From contig JBKCLO010000181.1 of assembly GCA_046300675.1 (NCBI GenBank), positions 8,915-72,914 of the forward strand: a stretch of DNA of 64,000 nt, read 5' to 3'. A program made the position numbers and the translations under genes. Positions 55,467 through 62,243 of the stretch are shown here, one piece after another. Positions within the stretch are counted from its first letter, which is position 1, and the number at the start of each line of letters is the position of its first letter. This DNA is from Ignavibacteria bacterium (GTDB lineage Bacteria > Bacteroidota > Ignavibacteria > Kapaibacteriales > Kapaibacteriaceae). The notes beneath the pieces are model-generated. The model saw nothing but the letters and a program-made list of their open reading frames with translations, was not told where the DNA came from and did not search any database.

Positions 55467-55496
55467 GTACTTTATGTTTGTTAAGTTCAACCGTAG

Positions 55497-55504
55497 CAAA
55501 TCTA
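55497..55504 (-). promoter_or_regulatory. Candidate -7 promoter box (TAGATTTG) for lrp-glnN
   Basis: The reverse complement is TAGATTTG, 30 nt upstream of the ATG at 55466. This also argues against the longer ORF start at 55508. Confidence 0.4.
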
Positions 55505-55549
55505 ACATTTGTTAAGCTTTATGTGCAAATTGTTTCACGAGGAGTGCCC

Positions 55550-56239
55550 ATGATCCGAGAGTTTCTGCGTTGGGCCCTGCGCACCGTCGTTGCGTTTTTG
55601 GTCTTTTCGGTGCTGGTTGTTGCCATGTTCCGAATCGTGCCTCCTGCCATCACGCCGTTAATGGTGTGGCGCATAGTGCAGGCCCCCTTTACAGGAAAGA
55701 CCTTGTTTGTGAAGCATCACTGGGTGTCCATGAGTAAGATCACACCGCAGATGGGGCGAGCAATGATCGCGGGTGAAGATGCTGGATTTGTGCGTCACAA
55801 GGGCATAGACTGGAGGGCGGTAGACAGAGCAAAACGCGCAAACGTTGCGCGTGTGCGCAAGGGCAAGCCCCCTCTTGGAGCAAGTACGATTACAATGCAA
55901 ACCTGCAAGAATGTGTTTCTGTTTCCTGTGCGTTCAATGCTGCGCAAGGGAGCAGAGGTGTACTTTGTGTATCTCACCGAAGCACTCTGGGGTAAGCACC
56001 GCATACTCGAGGTGTATCTCAACATGATCGAGTGGGGTGACGGCATTTATGGTGTGCATCAGGGGGCTCGGCATTGGTTTGGCGCAGATCCTGGCGCACT
56101 AACGCCTGATCAGGCAGCGCTGATGGGGGCAATCGTGCCCAATCCTCGAAAGTTCAGCGCTTCACAGCCTAGCCCGTACATACGGCGCAAGGCAGGTTGG
56201 ATTCGCGGTCGCATGCGCGGGGTATCATCCCCGAAGTAG
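55550..56239 (+). CDS. mtgA: Monofunctional biosynthetic peptidoglycan transglycosylase
   Basis: The ORF track gives 55478..56239; the ATG at 55550 is preceded by GGAG and gives MIREFLRWALRTVVAFLVFSVLVV (TM anchor). GT51 motifs present are AGEDAGFVRHKGIDW, GASTITMQ and RILEVYLNMIEWGDGIYG. Confidence 0.85.
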   Translation: MIREFLRWALRTVVAFLVFSVLVVAMFRIVPPAITPLMVWRIVQAPFTGKTLFVKHHWVSMSKITPQMGRAMIAGEDAGFVRHKGIDWRAVDRAKRANVARVRKGKPPLGASTITMQTCKNVFLFPVRSMLRKGAEVYFVYLTEALWGKHRILEVYLNMIEWGDGIYGVHQGARHWFGADPGALTPDQAALMGAIVPNPRKFSASQPSPYIRRKAGWIRGRMRGVSSPK

Positions 56240-57316
56240 ATCAAGACATGACTGCATGTCTGCCGGTATGGCACTTTCAAACGTCATCCGCTGCTTCGTC
56301 GTCGGGTGCGTAAACTCTAGACTGCGGGCGTGAAGTGCTTGACGATGTATGCGCTTAAGTACTTCGCTTCCCTGCAATCGATATGCGTGATGCAACGCGC
56401 TGATGGATGCATCACGACCGCCGTAATCAGGATCGCCGAGAAGTGGGTGCTTTCGAGAGCTCAAGTGGACACGTATCTGGTGTGTTCTACCCGTGCGAAG
56501 TTTACAGGTAATAAGCGTAGCGAAGAGAAATCGCTCATGCACCGTAACCTCGGTTGCGGCATACTTTCCACCGGTGCGAACAATTGCCCGTAGCGTGCGA
56601 TCACGTGGAGACCGTCCGATATCACCCTCGATCAGCAACTGGTCGTCTCCGAGAACACCCCAACAGAGCGCTACATACTGTCGCGACACCGTGCGGTCTG
56701 CAAACTGCGTAGCTAGCTGCATTGTAGTCTGATAGTTCTTCCCGATCACCATTACGCCTGAAGTATCACGGTCAAGACGATGCACGATCCCTGGACGAGC
56801 CGCTGCCTGCTCCTGCTCCAAACCTGCACCTACCTCCCAGAGTTCGGCCTCTGCATCAAGCGCTGGATCATCTGCAGATTCATCGCCGTCTCCCCAATCT
56901 TCGCGATTCTTGAGTATGTCGATGGGCTCTCTCTGACCAAGGTGCCAGAGAACTGCATTAACGATGGTGCCGTCGCGGTTCCCCAGCCCGGGATGGACGA
57001 GAATTCCTGGGGCCTTGTCTATCACCAACAGGTCGTTGTCTTCGTAGAGCACCGCAAGAGGAATATCCTGCGGAATGAGCTGTAGAGGGGGCGGCCTCAT
57101 CACCTTGACGGTGATACAATCGTTGGGCTTGACCTTATAGTTGGCGTTCTTGTGAACACCGTTAACATGCACTGCACCGGCGTCAATTGCCTTCTGCACA
57201 CGCGTTCTTGTAGCCATCGCGATGCTGCGGGTAATGTATGCATCAAGACGTTCCGGTTTCTTCCCAGGCGTTACAACGATCTCATACGTGTGCTCGGTGC
57301 GCTCAACTGCACTCAT
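56225..57316 (-). CDS. rluD: RluA/RluD family pseudouridine synthase with N-terminal S4 domain
   Basis: 363 aa. It has an S4 domain (RLDAYITRSIAMATRTRVQKAIDAGAVHVNG) and the catalytic motif HRLDRDTSGVMVIGK. An acidic insert (WGDGDESADDPALDAEAELWE) is present. The start overlaps the lspA stop (ATGA). Confidence 0.85.
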   Translation of the reverse strand: MSAVERTEHTYEIVVTPGKKPERLDAYITRSIAMATRTRVQKAIDAGAVHVNGVHKNANYKVKPNDCITVKVMRPPPLQLIPQDIPLAVLYEDNDLLVIDKAPGILVHPGLGNRDGTIVNAVLWHLGQREPIDILKNREDWGDGDESADDPALDAEAELWEVGAGLEQEQAAARPGIVHRLDRDTSGVMVIGKNYQTTMQLATQFADRTVSRQYVALCWGVLGDDQLLIEGDIGRSPRDRTLRAIVRTGGKYAATEVTVHERFLFATLITCKLRTGRTHQIRVHLSSRKHPLLGDPDYGGRDASISALHHAYRLQGSEVLKRIHRQALHARSLEFTHPTTKQRMTFESAIPADMQSCLDLLRG

Positions 57317-57885
57317 AGATCGCTCTTTACTGCAGGCTCTGCGGGTTTGACACGAAACGATGCGATAAGCATGAACACAACACCGATAGAAACACAGGAG
57401 TCAGCAAGATTGAAAACAGGAAAGTGGGTGTACTCGACACCCAGCCACATTACATCGGGAATATCAACCTGCAGAAAATCAACAACCTTACCCTCGAACA
57501 ACGGAGCTTCGCCGTAGAAGACCCCATAGAACATGCGGTCGATAAGATTACCTACTGCACCGGCGAATATCAGCATGAACGAAGCTCGTTCAAGTTTACT
57601 CGAGTCAGTGCGTGTATGCACGACATATGCCAGAGCACAAGCAATAACGATCGTAATAAGTGTTAGGACGATCTTGGCGCTACCCCAGCTAATCCCGAAG
57701 GCCATACCCGGGTTTTCGACAAAGGTGATACGCACGATCTCTCCTATCAGTGGAATCGACTCACCGAGGTACATTCCATCTTGATGGAATCCCATGATGG
57801 TGCCACCCTTGACCAAAAACTTCAAGAGCTGATCAAGAATGATCAGCCCCATAGCAATGGCGAAATACCATCGTGATGTATACAT
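57313..57885 (-). CDS. lspA: Lipoprotein signal peptidase (signal peptidase II)
   Basis: The ORF track start at 57906 is a TTG; the ATG at 57885 gives MYTSRWYFAIAMGLIILDQLLK. Motifs present are FGISWG, GAVGNLIDR and FNLADSCVSIG. Confidence 0.85.
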   Translation of the reverse strand: MYTSRWYFAIAMGLIILDQLLKFLVKGGTIMGFHQDGMYLGESIPLIGEIVRITFVENPGMAFGISWGSAKIVLTLITIVIACALAYVVHTRTDSSKLERASFMLIFAGAVGNLIDRMFYGVFYGEAPLFEGKVVDFLQVDIPDVMWLGVEYTHFPVFNLADSCVSIGVVFMLIASFRVKPAEPAVKSDL

Positions 57886-57913
57886 GCAGTATGAACTCCT
57901 TGTCAACCCCCAA

Positions 57914-58447
57914 CTACTTCAGCGCATCCGGATTCTTTGCAACGATTCTGTCTACTCCATCTTCAGGGCAGCGCTGACGAATCTTGTATGATGCAGATAG
58001 TGTTGTGATCGGAACAGCGATAAGACGCTCCTTCGCAATCAGAACTCCGCACATACGACAAATACCGTAACTCTTATCGTCAATGCGTCCAAGCGCCTCT
58101 TCCAGCTTGCGGATGTAGTCCTGGATGCGCTGAATCTGCGCATACGTTTTTTCCTTCTCGACTGCTTCTGAGCCTTGCTCAGCCATGTGCATCGAGTAGA
58201 TCGAGCTATCCTCGTTGTTCTCACTGTTGGTAAGATCTTCTAGGCGCTCACGAAGCATGCGTAGCTCTTCGAGAGCCTCCTCACGTGCACGCACAATATT
58301 GGTGCGGAAGAATTTGAGGTCAGATTCAGGGTACTTCAGACCCTTCTTAGGTGCTATCGGCAAAGTTGGCTTAGAAGCCCTGTTTGCCGCATTGGGGTCT
58401 TTAACAAAAACAGCACCGACGGGCTTAACGACCGTCGGTGCTGACAT
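57914..58447 (-). CDS. DksA/TraR family protein (FCB-type, partly degenerate zinc finger) with a low-complexity basic N-terminal extension
   Basis: 177 aa from the ATG at 58447. The core starts near KYPESDLKFFRTNIVRAREEALEELRML and ends YGICRMCGVLIAKERLIAVPITTLSASYK. It occupies the conserved position between ileS and lspA. The reading frame stays open for 75 codons upstream of the ATG with no alternative start codon (see findings). Confidence 0.75.
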   Translation of the reverse strand: MSAPTVVKPVGAVFVKDPNAANRASKPTLPIAPKKGLKYPESDLKFFRTNIVRAREEALEELRMLRERLEDLTNSENNEDSSIYSMHMAEQGSEAVEKEKTYAQIQRIQDYIRKLEEALGRIDDKSYGICRMCGVLIAKERLIAVPITTLSASYKIRQRCPEDGVDRIVAKNPDALK

Positions 58448-58641
58448 AGCCGACCCTTGTGACTTCTTCGACGCTTGCTTCGTTATCGTCGCCTTCCCAT
58501 TTGCTGCTGCTATAACCGGAGCGTTCTTGGCGTTTGCCGAACTCTTTCCTGACGCTTTCCCAGTAGTTGTCTTACTGGTGTTGGACGAAGCTTTAGTTGT
58601 CGTTGATGTACGAGGGCTCTGAGCCGAGTTAGGAGTTACCC

Positions 58642-58908
58642 TTACTTGGCTTTTTTTTTTGCCGCAGCCTTCTTAGCAGGCTTTGCAGCCTTCTTAGCTG
58701 GCTTAGCTGCCTTCTTAGCTGGCTTAGCTGCCTTCTTGGCTGCTGGCTTAGCTGCTGGCTTAGCTGCCTTCTTGGCTGCTGGCTTAGCTGCCTTCTTGGC
58801 TGCTGGCTTTGCTGCCTTCTTGGCTGCTGGCTTTGCTGCCTTTTTGGCTGCTGGCTTTGCAGCCTTTTTGGCTGCTGGCTTCTTGGCGGCTTTCTTTGCT
58901 GCTGCCAT
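58642..58908 (-). CDS. Histone H1-like Ala/Lys-repeat protein (88 aa)
   Basis: The sequence is MAAAKKAAKKPAAKKAAK(PAAKKAAK)n...PAKKAAKPAKKAAAKKKAK. It consists entirely of A/K/P, like bacterial H1-like nucleoid proteins. The two other long ORFs over the same repeat (58629..58952 on the minus strand and 58646..58930 on the plus strand) are frame artefacts. Confidence 0.7.
   Translation of the reverse strand: MAAAKKAAKKPAAKKAAKPAAKKAAKPAAKKAAKPAAKKAAKPAAKKAAKPAAKPAAKKAAKPAKKAAKPAKKAAKPAKKAAAKKKAK
58651..58660 (-). repeat. A10 homopolymer (coding strand) encoding KKK, five codons before the H1-like ORF stop; potential slippage or indel-error site
   Basis: The plus strand shows T10 at 58651-58660. 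On the minus strand this reads GCA AAA AAA AAA GCC AAG TAA. Confidence 0.95.
58670..58890 (-). repeat. In-frame tandem repeats (24-nt units, then 21-nt units) encoding PAAKKAAK / PAKKAAK
   Basis: The unit GGCTTAGCTGCCTTCTTGGCTGCT and close variants recur head-to-tail about 8-9 times on the plus strand. Confidence 0.9.
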
Positions 58909-58967
58909 GAGAGTACCTCAAAAAAAGTGAAACATGAAAACGCGTGCGCCACCTTGACGCACCACCA

Positions 58968-61900
58968 TCAAACACGCTGAACGCGTACGTTGACGTGACG
59001 CCCGTTTATCTCGAGATCAACCCCTAGAGGTTGTTCCCCCCGCTCGAGCGACTCCGCCAGCGTTTCCATTCCGATGTATGACCGCATCGCCTCGAGTGCC
59101 GCACTGGTCTCGTCATCGGTACAATAATGTACCTCAACGCGATCTGTGACTTCGTAACCCGATTCTTTGCGGATCTTTTGAAGGCGACTGACAAACTCAC
59201 GCGCTAGACCTTCTCTCATGAGGTGTTCATCAAGCTCTGTGTCCAGAGCAACTGTTAATCCCCCATCACTAGCTACAAGCCAGCCTTCAATGTCTTCGCT
59301 TATGATCTCTACGTCTTCAAAGTCGATTTGCACCGTCTTGTCGTCGATCATTAAGGCCAGCACTGAAGATTGTTCAAGTTTTCTTACCATTTCGTGTGTA
59401 AGCGTCTTGATTGCCTGTGCAACCACCTGCGTGTCTGTGCCGTACTTTTTTCCAATGATCTTGAAGTTCGGTCTGGCACTTCGTCTAACGATGTTTGTGT
59501 CGTCAGATACGTATTCGATTTCTTTAACGTTGATCTCTTCTTTGATGATGTCTTCAACTGTTTGCAGTTGTCTTCTCATCGCAGGACTATCAACTGGAAG
59601 TAGAATACGTCGCAGAGGTTGACGTGTCTTAATCTTCGCCTTCTCTCTCAAAGAACGTGCAAGAGAAACAATTTGTTGCGCTTGCATCATGCGATGTTCA
59701 AGATCACTATCGATCACGTTCTCATCACACGATTGCAATATAATACAATGAACACTCAATTGGTCAAGTGTTGGCTGAAGTCGTAAAAAAATTGATTCAG
59801 ATAAAAACGGTGCAACAGGTGCCATCATCTCTGCGACGCGAAGTAGAACTTCGTGCAATGTCTGATATGCTGCTCGCTTGTCTGCATCGTATTCACCTTT
59901 CCAGAACCGACGACGATTTCTGCGCACGTACCAATTCGAAACATCTTCGATTACAAACTCTTGTAGTATTCGGCAACCCTTTGTTAGATCATACCCATCC
60001 ATCGCAAGTGTGAATTGCTTGATGGTAGTGTGCAAGCGAGAGATAATCCAACGGTCGATCTCAGGCCGCTCTGCCACTGGTATGCGGGCATCAGAGGCCG
60101 TATATCCATCAACATTGGCATACATCACGAAGAACTCGAATGTATTGGTAAACGAGCGGAAGAAATCAGCGATCACCGTCTTGGCGATATCTTCTTCGTT
60201 CCAGAGCTTTGGTTTGTGAACTGGCGATGAGGACATCAAGAACCAGCGAACTGCATCACTGCCGAACTTGTCCATTACTTCGAATGGGTCAACCGTATTG
60301 CCCTTCGACTTCGACATTTTCTGTCCACGCTTGTCAAGCACAAGGTCGTTGACCACGACATTTTTATATGCCGGTCTGCCAAACAATGCAGTGGAAATAT
60401 TATGCAGCGTGTAGAACCATCCACGAGTTTGGTCTATACCTTCGGCGATGAAATCTGCCGGATAGGACTTCTCAAATAGCTCCTTGTTTTCGAACGGGTA
60501 ATGGAACTGAGCAAAGGGCATGCTGCCTGAATCAAACCAAACGTCTACTACCTCACGAGTACGACGATAGCGCATGCCGTCTTTGATGTAGACAACGCGG
60601 TCTACAAATGGACGATGAAGATCGATTTCCTTTCCAGACTCAGAAACAGGAACGAGCTGTCCGTCATCTGTTTCGTAGAGGCCGGCTCGAAGCTCATCGA
60701 TCGAGCCAATGGCAAACATGTCCTGACCATCCTCGCTTACCCAGATCGGCAGAGGAGATCCCCAGTAACGATCGCGCGAAATAGACCACTCTTTGACTTC
60801 TTCAAGCCAATTAGCAAATCTTCCCTCGCCGATCTCCGGTGGATGCCATGCAATCTGACGGTTGAGCTCTACAAGCTGACTTCGATACTGCGGTGATTTG
60901 ATGAACCAAGAATCCCGCGCGTAGTAGATCACCGGATTGTCTGTTCGCCAGCAGTGCGGATAGCTGTGTAGATAATCGAAGGACGCTTTGTATACCTTGT
61001 TAGCAATCTTAAGTGTCTTTACGATGTCTCGATCTGCGCCATCTTCCTTGTGATCAGTATAGGTAAAGGTCTTTACAGCGCGCCCGGCAAAATCCTTGAT
61101 GTCTGCGGTAAAATGCCCGTCTGCCGATACTGGCTGCGGCACCGGTAGCCCGTGCACTTTCGATAGTTCGAAGTCATCCTGGCCAAAGGCAGGTGCGATG
61201 TGCACAACGCCGGAGCCATCACCAGTAGTTACGAAATCACCTGGCAGCACATGTAACACGTTTGGATGAGCTTGCGCATCGAGATGCACGTCGGTAAAGA
61301 TTTGCTCATAGCATGAGCCCACGAGCTCACTTCCCGTAAAGCCTTCCAGAATAGTGTACTCTCCGTCTAGAATGCTTAGTCTACTCTCTGCGAGTACAAA
61401 AAGCTCTTCGATGCTCTGCTCGCCAACTACTCGTGTATTCTTTATCAGTACGTACTTAATGTCGGGTCCGACCGCAAGCGCAACATTTGCGAACAACGTC
61501 CACGGCGTCGTGGTCCAGACAATAATGCTTGCTCCAACTGCATCACTGATTGGAGACGAAGTTATCCGAAGCTTAAGGTAGACGTTTGCGTCTTTGACTT
61601 CTTTGTAATTCTGAGACAGCTCGTGCGATGAAAGGGGCGTGCCAAGTGTAGGCGACTGCGGCACTACCTTGTATCCCTTATATATGAGCCCCTTGTCAAA
61701 GTATTGCTTTAGAGCCCACCACACAGATTCGATATACTCGTTTGTGCAGGTGATATAAGCACTATCCAGATCGAGCCAGTGCCCCATGCGGCGCGTAAGT
61801 GTGCGCCAGCCATTATCCATCGAGATGTTGCGATAGACAATGTCTTTGCATACAGCATTGAACTTTTCTACACCAAGCACTTCGATCTGCGCTTTGTCGG

Positions 61901-62207
61901 TGATGCCAAGCTCCTTCTCGGCGCTCAGCTCTACGGGCAGTCCGTGAGTGTCCCACCCAGCCTGCCTGCGAACATGATAACCACGCAGGTGCTTGTATCT
62001 GCAGATGGAGTCTTTGATCGTTCTGGCAAGAACGTGGTGTATACCCGGTTTGCCGTTTACCGTAGGGGGCCCTTCAAAGAACGAGAACTCCTCGGCACCA
62101 ACTCTGGCCTGCTGGGAGCGTTCAAAGACGTTGTTGTTCTCCCAATAATCAAGGATCGACTCTTCAAGTTTTGGGTAGGATAGAACTTCCGGCAGTGGTT
62201 CGAACAT
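58968..62207 (-). CDS. ileS: Isoleucine--tRNA ligase
   Basis: 1079 aa with a HIGH-type motif (PTVNGKPGIHHVLARTIKD), KMSKS (QKMSKSKGN) and a CP1 editing domain region. Confidence 0.95.
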   Translation of the reverse strand: MFEPLPEVLSYPKLEESILDYWENNNVFERSQQARVGAEEFSFFEGPPTVNGKPGIHHVLARTIKDSICRYKHLRGYHVRRQAGWDTHGLPVELSAEKELGITDKAQIEVLGVEKFNAVCKDIVYRNISMDNGWRTLTRRMGHWLDLDSAYITCTNEYIESVWWALKQYFDKGLIYKGYKVVPQSPTLGTPLSSHELSQNYKEVKDANVYLKLRITSSPISDAVGASIIVWTTTPWTLFANVALAVGPDIKYVLIKNTRVVGEQSIEELFVLAESRLSILDGEYTILEGFTGSELVGSCYEQIFTDVHLDAQAHPNVLHVLPGDFVTTGDGSGVVHIAPAFGQDDFELSKVHGLPVPQPVSADGHFTADIKDFAGRAVKTFTYTDHKEDGADRDIVKTLKIANKVYKASFDYLHSYPHCWRTDNPVIYYARDSWFIKSPQYRSQLVELNRQIAWHPPEIGEGRFANWLEEVKEWSISRDRYWGSPLPIWVSEDGQDMFAIGSIDELRAGLYETDDGQLVPVSESGKEIDLHRPFVDRVVYIKDGMRYRRTREVVDVWFDSGSMPFAQFHYPFENKELFEKSYPADFIAEGIDQTRGWFYTLHNISTALFGRPAYKNVVVNDLVLDKRGQKMSKSKGNTVDPFEVMDKFGSDAVRWFLMSSSPVHKPKLWNEEDIAKTVIADFFRSFTNTFEFFVMYANVDGYTASDARIPVAERPEIDRWIISRLHTTIKQFTLAMDGYDLTKGCRILQEFVIEDVSNWYVRRNRRRFWKGEYDADKRAAYQTLHEVLLRVAEMMAPVAPFLSESIFLRLQPTLDQLSVHCIILQSCDENVIDSDLEHRMMQAQQIVSLARSLREKAKIKTRQPLRRILLPVDSPAMRRQLQTVEDIIKEEINVKEIEYVSDDTNIVRRSARPNFKIIGKKYGTDTQVVAQAIKTLTHEMVRKLEQSSVLALMIDDKTVQIDFEDVEIISEDIEGWLVASDGGLTVALDTELDEHLMREGLAREFVSRLQKIRKESGYEVTDRVEVHYCTDDETSAALEAMRSYIGMETLAESLERGEQPLGVDLEINGRHVNVRVQRV

Positions 62208-62235
62208 GTAGTTGTGTCTGGTATGAAACGAAACG

Positions 62236-62243
62236 CAAAGTTA
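62236..62243 (-). promoter_or_regulatory. Candidate -7 promoter box (TAACTTTG) for ileS
   Basis: The reverse complement is TAACTTTG, 28 nt upstream of the ATG at 62207. It overlaps the stop codon of the histidine kinase gene. Confidence 0.4.

Follow-up and report, generated by a model that had tools for sequence, protein, structure and literature searches.

Is a run of ten adenines the point at which two bacterial open reading frames (ORFs) are read as one gene? The question is raised by a 64,000-nucleotide (nt) stretch of contig JBKCLO010000181.1 from an Ignavibacteria bacterium (assembly GCA_046300675.1), the whole of which is called the window hereafter. On its minus strand, an 88-codon ORF of Ala/Lys repeats is followed by an ORF for a 177-amino-acid (aa) protein of the DksA/TraR family, with 194 nt between the stop of the first and ATG 58447 of the second (Table 1). 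The Ala/Lys module is reminiscent of the Lys/Ala repeats in histone-H1-like proteins of bacteria, and close to its 3′ end the ORF carries an uninterrupted run of ten A's (A10). A sequence-only reading of the window had proposed that this run could join the H1-like ORF to the DksA-like ORF through a linker that has neither stop nor start codon; the observation proved accurate in every detail checked, and comparative data now support it. The pattern of conservation across 39 species indicates that the two ORFs are very probably joined by programmed recoding, and we lean towards a single recoded gene in which the frame would change mainly by RNA polymerase slippage, with the addition of one A.

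Over the run, the H1-like ORF (MAAAKKAAKKPAAKK...AAAKKKAK) reads GCA AAA AAA AAA GCC AAG TAA, with its stop five codons past the run, and one added A produces a 331-aa ORF. In the frame of the DksA-like protein there is no stop from 58672 onward and no ATG, GTG or TTG before 58447, the linker reading KKKSQVRVTPNS...SQGSA-MSAP, and the other two frames over the same stretch hold four and three stops. That so long an open stretch is improbable by chance had been argued from an estimate of 4% for 68 codons; the argument held, with a different figure, as 0.6% of dinucleotide-preserving shuffles are stop-free over the 105 codons that lead from the run to the conserved DksA core in the window. A Shine–Dalgarno-like GAGGT motif sits 8 nt 5′ of the H1-like ATG and is kept in relatives as GGAGGT or GAGGT. 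No identical copy of the 88-aa protein was returned by an exact-sequence look-up in a protein collection.

A scan of one genome per species with the DksA-like protein of the window recovered 80 loci, all from Kapaibacteria, Ignavibacteria or Bacteroidota metagenome-assembled genomes. The window and 38 of these loci (L001–L037 and L046) share the two-frame arrangement and make up the recoded set of 39; the other loci recovered number 42. In a neighbour-joining tree of the DksA core, the 39 recoded-type sequences form one clade with no other sequence inside it, and core identity within this clade is as low as 68%. Of the 39 species, 38 carry exactly ten A's, and the frame geometry around the run is identical in all 39; in the exception, L032, a G-to-A change of the base after the run makes it A11 and leaves the frame relation unchanged. 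The homologous upstream Ala/Lys-repeat ORF encodes 60–121 aa where it is intact, and in relatives its zero-frame stop lies 2–4 codons past the run; this stop is conserved in 39 of 39 loci, in 13 sequence versions. In the 38 relatives the DksA frame is closed 3–65 codons 5′ of the run and is then open from the run through the end of the DksA-like protein, and virtual fusions across the run would be 293–408 aa long. The third frame stops 1–10 codons past the run in all lineages, and in several lineages a frame change is possible only within about 25 nt around the run.

This constancy goes beyond what the encoded residues require. Lys codons outside the run in ORFs of the recoded clade are AAG 1054 times against AAA 105 times (91% AAG), and the wobble base of Ala codons is A in 39%; GCA AAA AAA AAA in 39 species is therefore held by selection at the nucleotide level. 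In the window's own species, ten of ten independent assemblies from JGI, ENA and Logan, made from different samples, carry A10, as do 16 of 17 metagenome contigs found in a scan that permitted run lengths from A8 to A13. The seventeenth, a short JGI contig of the L001 species (L082, Ga0255308_1005136), carries A12 and matches, at 99.6% identity, an A10 contig of a sister sample; the A12 could be an assembly error or a transcript-derived trace of slippage. An in-frame run allele occurs in none of 66 observations (39 species genomes, 17 metagenome contigs and 10 same-species assemblies). Among 120 hits listed from a collection of 5.8 billion proteins, no close relative is an in-frame fusion, and the close relatives are called as proteins of 177–236 aa with arbitrary starts within the linker.

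The linker between the run and the DksA core has the marks of coding sequence. Over the 39 loci and 4078 codons of run-to-core sequence, the DksA frame is free of stops, whereas the other two frames contain 165 and 174; in the part that precedes the first conserved start codon, the three frames have 0, 81 and 116. This start-less part has 9 distinct lengths and the whole run-to-core segment 14, all differing by multiples of three. In the start-less part, C stands at 13% of first, 49% of second and 15% of third codon positions (chi-square 851), and base composition there is three-periodic in every lineage; a C peak at codon position 2 is the signature of Ser, Thr, Ala and Pro codons. Many species have no ATG anywhere between the run and the DksA core. 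On this codon-level signature the start-less linker is very probably translated, and because there is no upstream start and the frame is closed a few codons 5′ of the run, ribosomes would reach it only from the H1 frame. Coincidence, which the sequence-only reading had kept among its explanations, fails on the stop counts, the exclusively in-frame insertions and deletions (indels) and the three-base periodicity. The comparison of relatives from ileS to lspA that it had suggested gives a run-to-DksA frame without stops in 39 loci and a near-invariant A10 length.

Outside the clade, the same two modules are usually encoded together. Most of the other related lineages have a single ORF of 255–533 aa with an ATG start, in which a Lys-rich N-terminal extension of 120–400 aa (20–36% Lys plus Arg) runs into the DksA core; the L060 protein, for example, begins MPSKAKTKPKATAAKKAAAKKAKPAAKK.... 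Two other lineages have a short form without the Lys-rich extension. H1-like and DksA-like sequences are thus found in one polypeptide as a single ORF in most other lineages, and in the window only given recoding, so that the would-be recoded fusion of the window is the normal protein of neighbouring lineages. Such a fusion is not the novelty for which it had been taken, both because it is one ORF in most other lineages and because the Streptomyces coelicolor protein DdbA has been described (PMC3643593). At L050 (1894–3411), the DksA frame stays open through a Lys-rich extension of some 310 codons that has no ATG, GTG or TTG. This locus was rejected as a frameshift case because ATT sits at the expected ATG (..N-I-A-K-A-K.. 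against M-A-K..); the ATT could be a non-canonical start or a sequence variant. Candidates for second recoding sites in the single-ORF group were likewise rejected, the A10 runs of L058, L060, L061 and L072 being intergenic and the A9/A10 runs of L065 and the A9 run of L055 lying in frame within the ORF.

Adjoining the run is a hairpin that the sequence-only reading had missed. In most lineages it begins at the first base past the run, as seen by folding the 34–42 nt after the run in 34–36 distinct sequences. A comparison of raw stability favours the antisense hairpin in 30 of 34 sequences; with composition controlled, the mean z is about −2.5 for the sense strand against −2.9 for the antisense, and a test by stability and G–U pairs is then ambiguous as to strand. 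The stem occurs in versions that differ in sequence (GCUU..AAGC, GCAGCC..GGCUGC, UGAGCU..AGCUCA and GCGU..ACGC). A covariance model was built from 17 sequences and 26 loci were aligned to it; 84% of cells are paired in this alignment against 76% in shuffles, with none of 500 shuffles as high, and 5 of the 11 hairpin pairs show compensatory double changes. When the 3′ partners are slid by one to three columns, only 15–49% are paired. RNAalifold found no structure in a MAFFT alignment of the junction, a false negative that stems from misaligned indels, and no Rfam match occurs in 57500..59400. The sense-strand hairpin starts 0–3 nt past possible A_AAA_AAA heptamers; read on the plus strand, the hairpin is followed by T10, the form of a stem-loop plus U tract terminator.

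The downstream module is a divergent member of its family. The 177-aa protein matches Pfam zf-dskA_traR (PF01258) at 25.7 bits, with a cutoff of 24.9; its best NCBIfam match, the yteA family, is sub-threshold (70.8 against a cutoff of 134.4 bits), as is its match to NCBIfam DksA. Its relatives by sequence in the PDB are the DksA-type proteins 6PTG, 2KQ9, 1TJL and 4IJJ, and NCBI records of the identical protein name it "TraR/DksA family transcriptional regulator". The conserved DksA core starts near KYPESDLKFF, and the tip region, SMHMAEQGSEA, is invariant in the clade. The C4 zinc finger is incomplete (window 57980–58060): the first pair, CRMC, is kept and the second is replaced by S..Y in LSASYKI, a replacement shared by all 80 loci, those of the clade and those of the other related lineages alike. 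Since the second Cys pair is missing, the domain is not classed as a canonical C4 DksA, and canonical C4 zinc binding by it is improbable to judge from these residues.

The start of the DksA-like ORF at ATG 58447, from which the sequence-only reading had worked, is a local feature. It is kept at the aligned position in the window and its six closest relatives alone; an ATG stands at about the equivalent place in three more distant loci (L034, L037 and L046). Most other species have, 43–57 codons past the run, a near-invariant purine-rich motif (AGUAGGAA/AAGGAAGGAA; AGUAGGAAC-GUG-ACG or AAGGAAGGAA-GUG), after which the start codon is GTG in about 26 relatives and ATG in 3. GTG makes up only 25% of Val codons in the ORFs of the clade, and gene callers begin proteins of 184–190 aa at the motif-plus-GTG site. 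We read this site, from its conservation, as the probable point of internal initiation of a free DksA-like protein in most relatives. The window's sub-clade has GCG at 58492..58490, with ATG 58447 lying 14 codons downstream; here the motif-plus-GTG start is lost and ATG 58447 is found in its stead. The purine-rich motif (window 58490–58515; L007–L037 and L046) uses the rare AGU and AGG codons.

Our reading of programmed recoding draws on the conservation of the frame geometry, on the coding character of the start-less linker and on the fusion being a single ORF in other related lineages, and of the explanations offered by the sequence-only reading it is the one that the 39-species comparison upholds. 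We infer the slippage level, the product ratio and the function of the fusion as follows. Standard decoding of the A10 template would give an abundant 88-aa Lys/Ala-repeat protein of nucleoid type. In a fraction of expression events, a −1 frame change at the run would carry translation through the linker and into the DksA-like domain to give the 331-aa fusion; RNA polymerase would slip backward on the T10 template and add one A, and the resulting A11 mRNA would be translated normally. The fusion would tether an RNA-polymerase-binding factor of the DksA/YlyA type to DNA through the H1-like repeats. A free DksA-like protein would probably also be made from the internal start (ATG 58447 here), giving three products. 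Most of the nucleoid-type protein in the cell would thus be free, and a smaller, set share of the module would be tethered to a domain that binds RNA polymerase.

Slippage is favoured by several properties of the run. Ten A's are invariant, although a −1 ribosomal shift needs only seven, and a run of 10 matches the 9–10 base pairs of the RNA:DNA hybrid. Slippage is efficient at runs of at least 9 A or T (PMC5009743; PMC1088944), and at A/T runs single-base insertions are its main outcome, with a frequency that rises exponentially with length (PMC5574713). The A10 at 58660..58651 is an uninterrupted A/T run above the length of about 9 expected of a slippage site in coding sequence, and it is conserved without in-frame length variants and followed by a long conserved ORF in the shifted frame. 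The insertion of a single A enters exactly the DksA frame, and the third frame, into which A9 or A12 mRNAs would lead, closes within 1–10 codons in all lineages. Two-ORF dnaX genes with A10 have moreover been assigned to the same mechanism.

Several points tell against this preferred reading, some of them against slippage and others against recoding of any kind. The mechanism is deduced from the logic of the sequence, and a conserved hairpin at the run is the classical partner of −1 ribosomal frameshifting, whereas transcriptional slippage has no need of it. The same products could arise by a −1 ribosomal shift on A_AAA_AAA stimulated by the hairpin, or the two mechanisms could act together, an account that we regard as a strong rival but as less likely than slippage. 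The phase GC-A AAA AAA AAA-G offers canonical heptamers in the zero frame, A_AAA_AAA being a recognised bacterial shift motif (PMC3711429; PMC4066793). Were the first heptamer to occupy the P and A sites, the foot of the stem would be some 10 nt away from the first base in the P site, close to where mRNA enters the ribosome. A hairpin follows the run in most lineages, with the pairing statistics and compensatory changes given above. However, seven A's would suffice for a ribosomal shift, and yet ten are invariant despite the strong preference for AAG. The spacer between heptamer and stem is 0–3 nt, below the roughly 6 nt of Escherichia coli dnaX and the usual range of 5–9 nt. No upstream Shine–Dalgarno-like stimulator is conserved, AAGAAGG belonging to the repeat and in several lineages being missing or displaced, and the hairpin is no less stable when read from the other strand. 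The quick third-frame stop, finally, matters for heterogeneous slipped mRNAs and not for a ribosomal shift.

The remaining points of this kind concern the linker and the internal start. Among the seven closest species, the ratio of nonsynonymous to synonymous substitution rates (dN/dS) of the linker is about 0.64, an ungapped comparison of this sort being invalid where indels are present, and its variable columns number 22, 16 and 20 by codon position, with no third-position excess. Selection thus acts on the openness and composition of the linker and not on its sequence, and such near-free evolution is expected of a disordered basic linker. Its nucleotide identity among the closest species is nonetheless 83–96%, against about 79–85% in the DksA coding region, which hints at extra nucleotide-level constraint beyond coding, and a codon-usage likelihood with stops excluded did not favour the DksA frame, base periodicity having been the measure that was informative. 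Given the probable internal start, the DksA-like domain need not depend on recoding, although such a start does not explain the coding segment upstream of it. The own start of DksA in most species and the weak protein-level constraint and high nucleotide identity of the linker count in favour of a reading with no recoding at all: two separate genes, with an own DksA start at the purine-rich motif in most species, a run and hairpin serving as an antisense terminator or as a 3′-end or stability element of the H1 mRNA, and a weakly constrained linker left as the relic of an ancestral fusion. We consider this improbable. The plus strand does have textbook terminator geometry, with a stem slightly more stable there, but a relic would not have stayed stop-free over its start-less part in 39 diverged lineages, nor restricted its indels to in-frame lengths and kept a three-base periodicity once the sequences had become unalignable. 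As for termination, no plus-strand gene lies within about 2.4 kb upstream, and the nearest plus-strand TAnnTTTG box is about 3 kb off, at 55473. No other A/T run in the 64 kb reaches 8 bases, so that the terminators of this genome do without U10 tracts, and U-tracts tolerate interruptions and length changes, of which none is seen at the run. Phase variation at the DNA level, with replication slippage toggling the gene between A10 (off) and A11 (on), had been another suggestion of the sequence-only reading. Long A runs are hypermutable in general (PMC1088944), and one contig of the L001 species has A12 where its sister sample has A10. If this were a contingency locus, consensus assemblies should include both states; no in-frame A11 allele occurs in the species genomes, metagenome contigs, same-species assemblies or protein hits listed, and the sole variant, A12, is likewise out of frame, so we hold this to be very improbable. 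Scarcely credible, lastly, is a homopolymer error of sequencing or assembly that hides a true A11 and a plain fusion, as had also been considered. Homopolymers are error-prone on some platforms, but the run has the same length in dozens of independent assemblies from various laboratories, pipelines and species, and the zero-frame stop just past it, which would be unconstrained in a plain fusion, is kept in all its 13 versions.

A more speculative extension of the slippage reading, and in our view a long shot, is that slip frequency reports the state of RNA polymerase. Because the tethered DksA-like form would be made only on a slip, the gene could act as a feedback sensor that connects polymerase fidelity or pausing, the status of nucleoside triphosphates or guanosine tetraphosphate (ppGpp), and nucleoid structure, with the hairpin tuning the ratio of H1, H1-DksA and DksA products. 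At an A9 run in E. coli, GreA and GreB alter slippage and DksA is without effect (PMC4666387), which contradicts, for that species, a control of slippage by DksA itself.

Each part of this arrangement has counterparts in known systems. The clade shares the Bacteroidota–Chlorobi superphylum with the Chlorobi. Closest in mechanism is transcriptional slippage in dnaX (A9 in Thermus thermophilus, and two-ORF genes with A10 reported by Antonov et al. 2013), which likewise involves an uninterrupted run of 9–10 A's in a cellular, non-mobile gene and yields two products with a common N-terminus, the alternative frames closing quickly (PMC3711429; PMC5009743). Poly-A dnaX genes assigned to slippage include nine with A10 and Chlorobi members with A7–A9 (PMC3711429). 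The dnaX cases differ in gene family, and slippage in T. thermophilus yields the shorter of the two proteins, where here it would yield the longer. The mxiE gene encodes an AraC-type virulence regulator of a single species. In mxiE of Shigella flexneri (T9), slippage likewise fuses two overlapping ORFs into a longer regulatory protein (PMC1088944); here, by contrast, the arrangement is conserved over 39 species and the short product is itself plausibly functional. The −1 frameshifting of E. coli dnaX and of IS3- and IS1-type elements (A_AAA_AAG or A_AAA_AAA with a 3′ stem-loop) resembles the present case in its A-rich in-phase heptamer and conserved hairpin, and differs in that here the spacer is very short, no upstream Shine–Dalgarno-like element is conserved and ten A's are kept, not seven.

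For the protein architecture, the nearest counterpart is DdbA (SCO2075) of S. coelicolor, presumably encoded between ileS and lsp. It has the same H1-like plus DksA-like architecture; the protein binds DNA and condenses it, with effects on supercoiling and on phenotypes related to ppGpp (PMC3643593). DdbA is encoded by one ORF and keeps the four zinc-finger Cys and both tip aspartates, whereas here the protein is split over two frames and lacks the second Cys pair. Orthologues of DdbA were found by its authors only in streptomycetes (PMC3643593), and the H1-DksA fusion described here is possibly convergent with it. The sub-threshold yteA match points to Bacillus subtilis YlyA and YteA, DksA-like proteins that bind RNA polymerase; YlyA has neither an H1-like extension nor recoding. 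Its gene adjoins ileS in B. subtilis (PMC5282499), an adjacency that matches the ileS-x-lspA-rluD order of the window.

Within the window, all genes between 56225 and 62207 lie on the minus strand (Table 1). The sequence-only reading had noted that the spacer is devoid of a TAnnTTTG box; there is indeed none on either strand from 55504 to 62236, the flanking boxes being one at 62236–62243, just 5′ of the ileS ATG, and a pair at 55473–55504. This suggests that ileS-H1-dksA-lspA-rluD may be a single transcription unit or may have internal promoters of another type.

Table 1 Features of the recoded locus and its neighbours (window positions)
Feature	Position	Strand	Basis or remark
ileS	58968..62207	minus	upstream neighbour; Pfam domains
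H1-like Ala/Lys-repeat ORF, 88 aa	58642..58908	minus	ATG 58908, TAA 58644..58642
A10 run, putative recoding site, zero frame GC-A AAA AAA AAA-G	58651..58660	minus	only homopolymer of at least 8 bases in the window
Imperfect 28-nt hairpin, GCC.AGU.AGGG-UAAC-UCCU.ACU.GGC, zero-frame stop inside	58623..58650	minus	folding and covariance model
Ser/Thr/Lys/Ala-rich linker, 68 codons, −1 (DksA) frame, start-less	58448..58651	minus	open in frame
Codon GCG, aligned with the GTG/ATG internal start of relatives	58490..58492	minus	alignment
DksA/TraR-family (YteA/YlyA-like) ORF, 177 aa	57914..58447	minus	Pfam, NCBIfam and PDB relatives
Whole candidate recoded gene, 331-aa trans-frame product (H1-like repeats, linker, DksA-like domain)	57914..58908	minus	virtual fusion
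lspA (signal peptidase II)	57313..57906	minus	downstream neighbour
rluD-type pseudouridine synthase	56225..57316	minus	next after lspA

Two further observations were made upstream of the H1-like ORF. The minus-strand region 58909–59075, which covers the last ~110 nt of ileS and the ileS-H1 intergenic sequence, has 98–100% identity among seven species, against only 75–85% in their flanking coding DNA. It holds three tandem hairpins with compensatory changes across the clade. The first is CUCGAG..[AACAACC-UCUA-GGGGUUG]..CUCGAG, with variants CAGCUC/GGGCUG, CGAUCC/GGGAUCG and CGGUUCC/GGAACCG; the second is located around the ileS stop; and the third, terminator-like, is GUGCGUCA-AGG-UGGCGCAC followed by GCGUUUUCAU (58962..58944). 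No Rfam match was found for this region, which could be an attenuator, a terminator or a leader of the H1-DksA unit. Farther upstream, the short metagenome contigs L082, L094, L088, L095 and L086, from different species, have a near-common end at about 59663–59717 of the window, within ileS and some 700–750 nt 5′ of its stop. A common RNA end could account for this if the assemblies derive from transcripts; alternatively, conserved sequence may give way to variable sequence there.

To our knowledge, chromosomal, non-mobile bacterial genes are rarely subject to programmed recoding that is conserved; the known cases are dnaX, prfB and a few others. Neither DksA nor histone-like genes are mentioned in the GeneTack survey and its supplements (PMC3711429) or in the 2016 Atkins review (PMC5009743), and no report of recoding in DksA/TraR genes was found in the recoding literature that could be searched. 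The kind of mechanism proposed here is known; the gene family and the pair of products are unmentioned in that literature. The locus would be a case of recoding held over deep divergence in an uncultured lineage, splitting a gene that is kept whole in most other related lineages. For annotation, it means a systematic error in the clade, the gene being called as two ORFs and the DksA-like protein given an arbitrary start (177–236 aa). The 39 natural variants provide a comparative test bed for distinguishing transcriptional slippage from ribosomal frameshifting. In the biology of these bacteria, two products seem to be required at a set ratio, one a small and abundant protein of nucleoid type and the other a DNA-tethered DksA/YlyA-type domain, and the gene would thereby offer a natural system for asking how DNA tethering of a secondary-channel-type factor matters.

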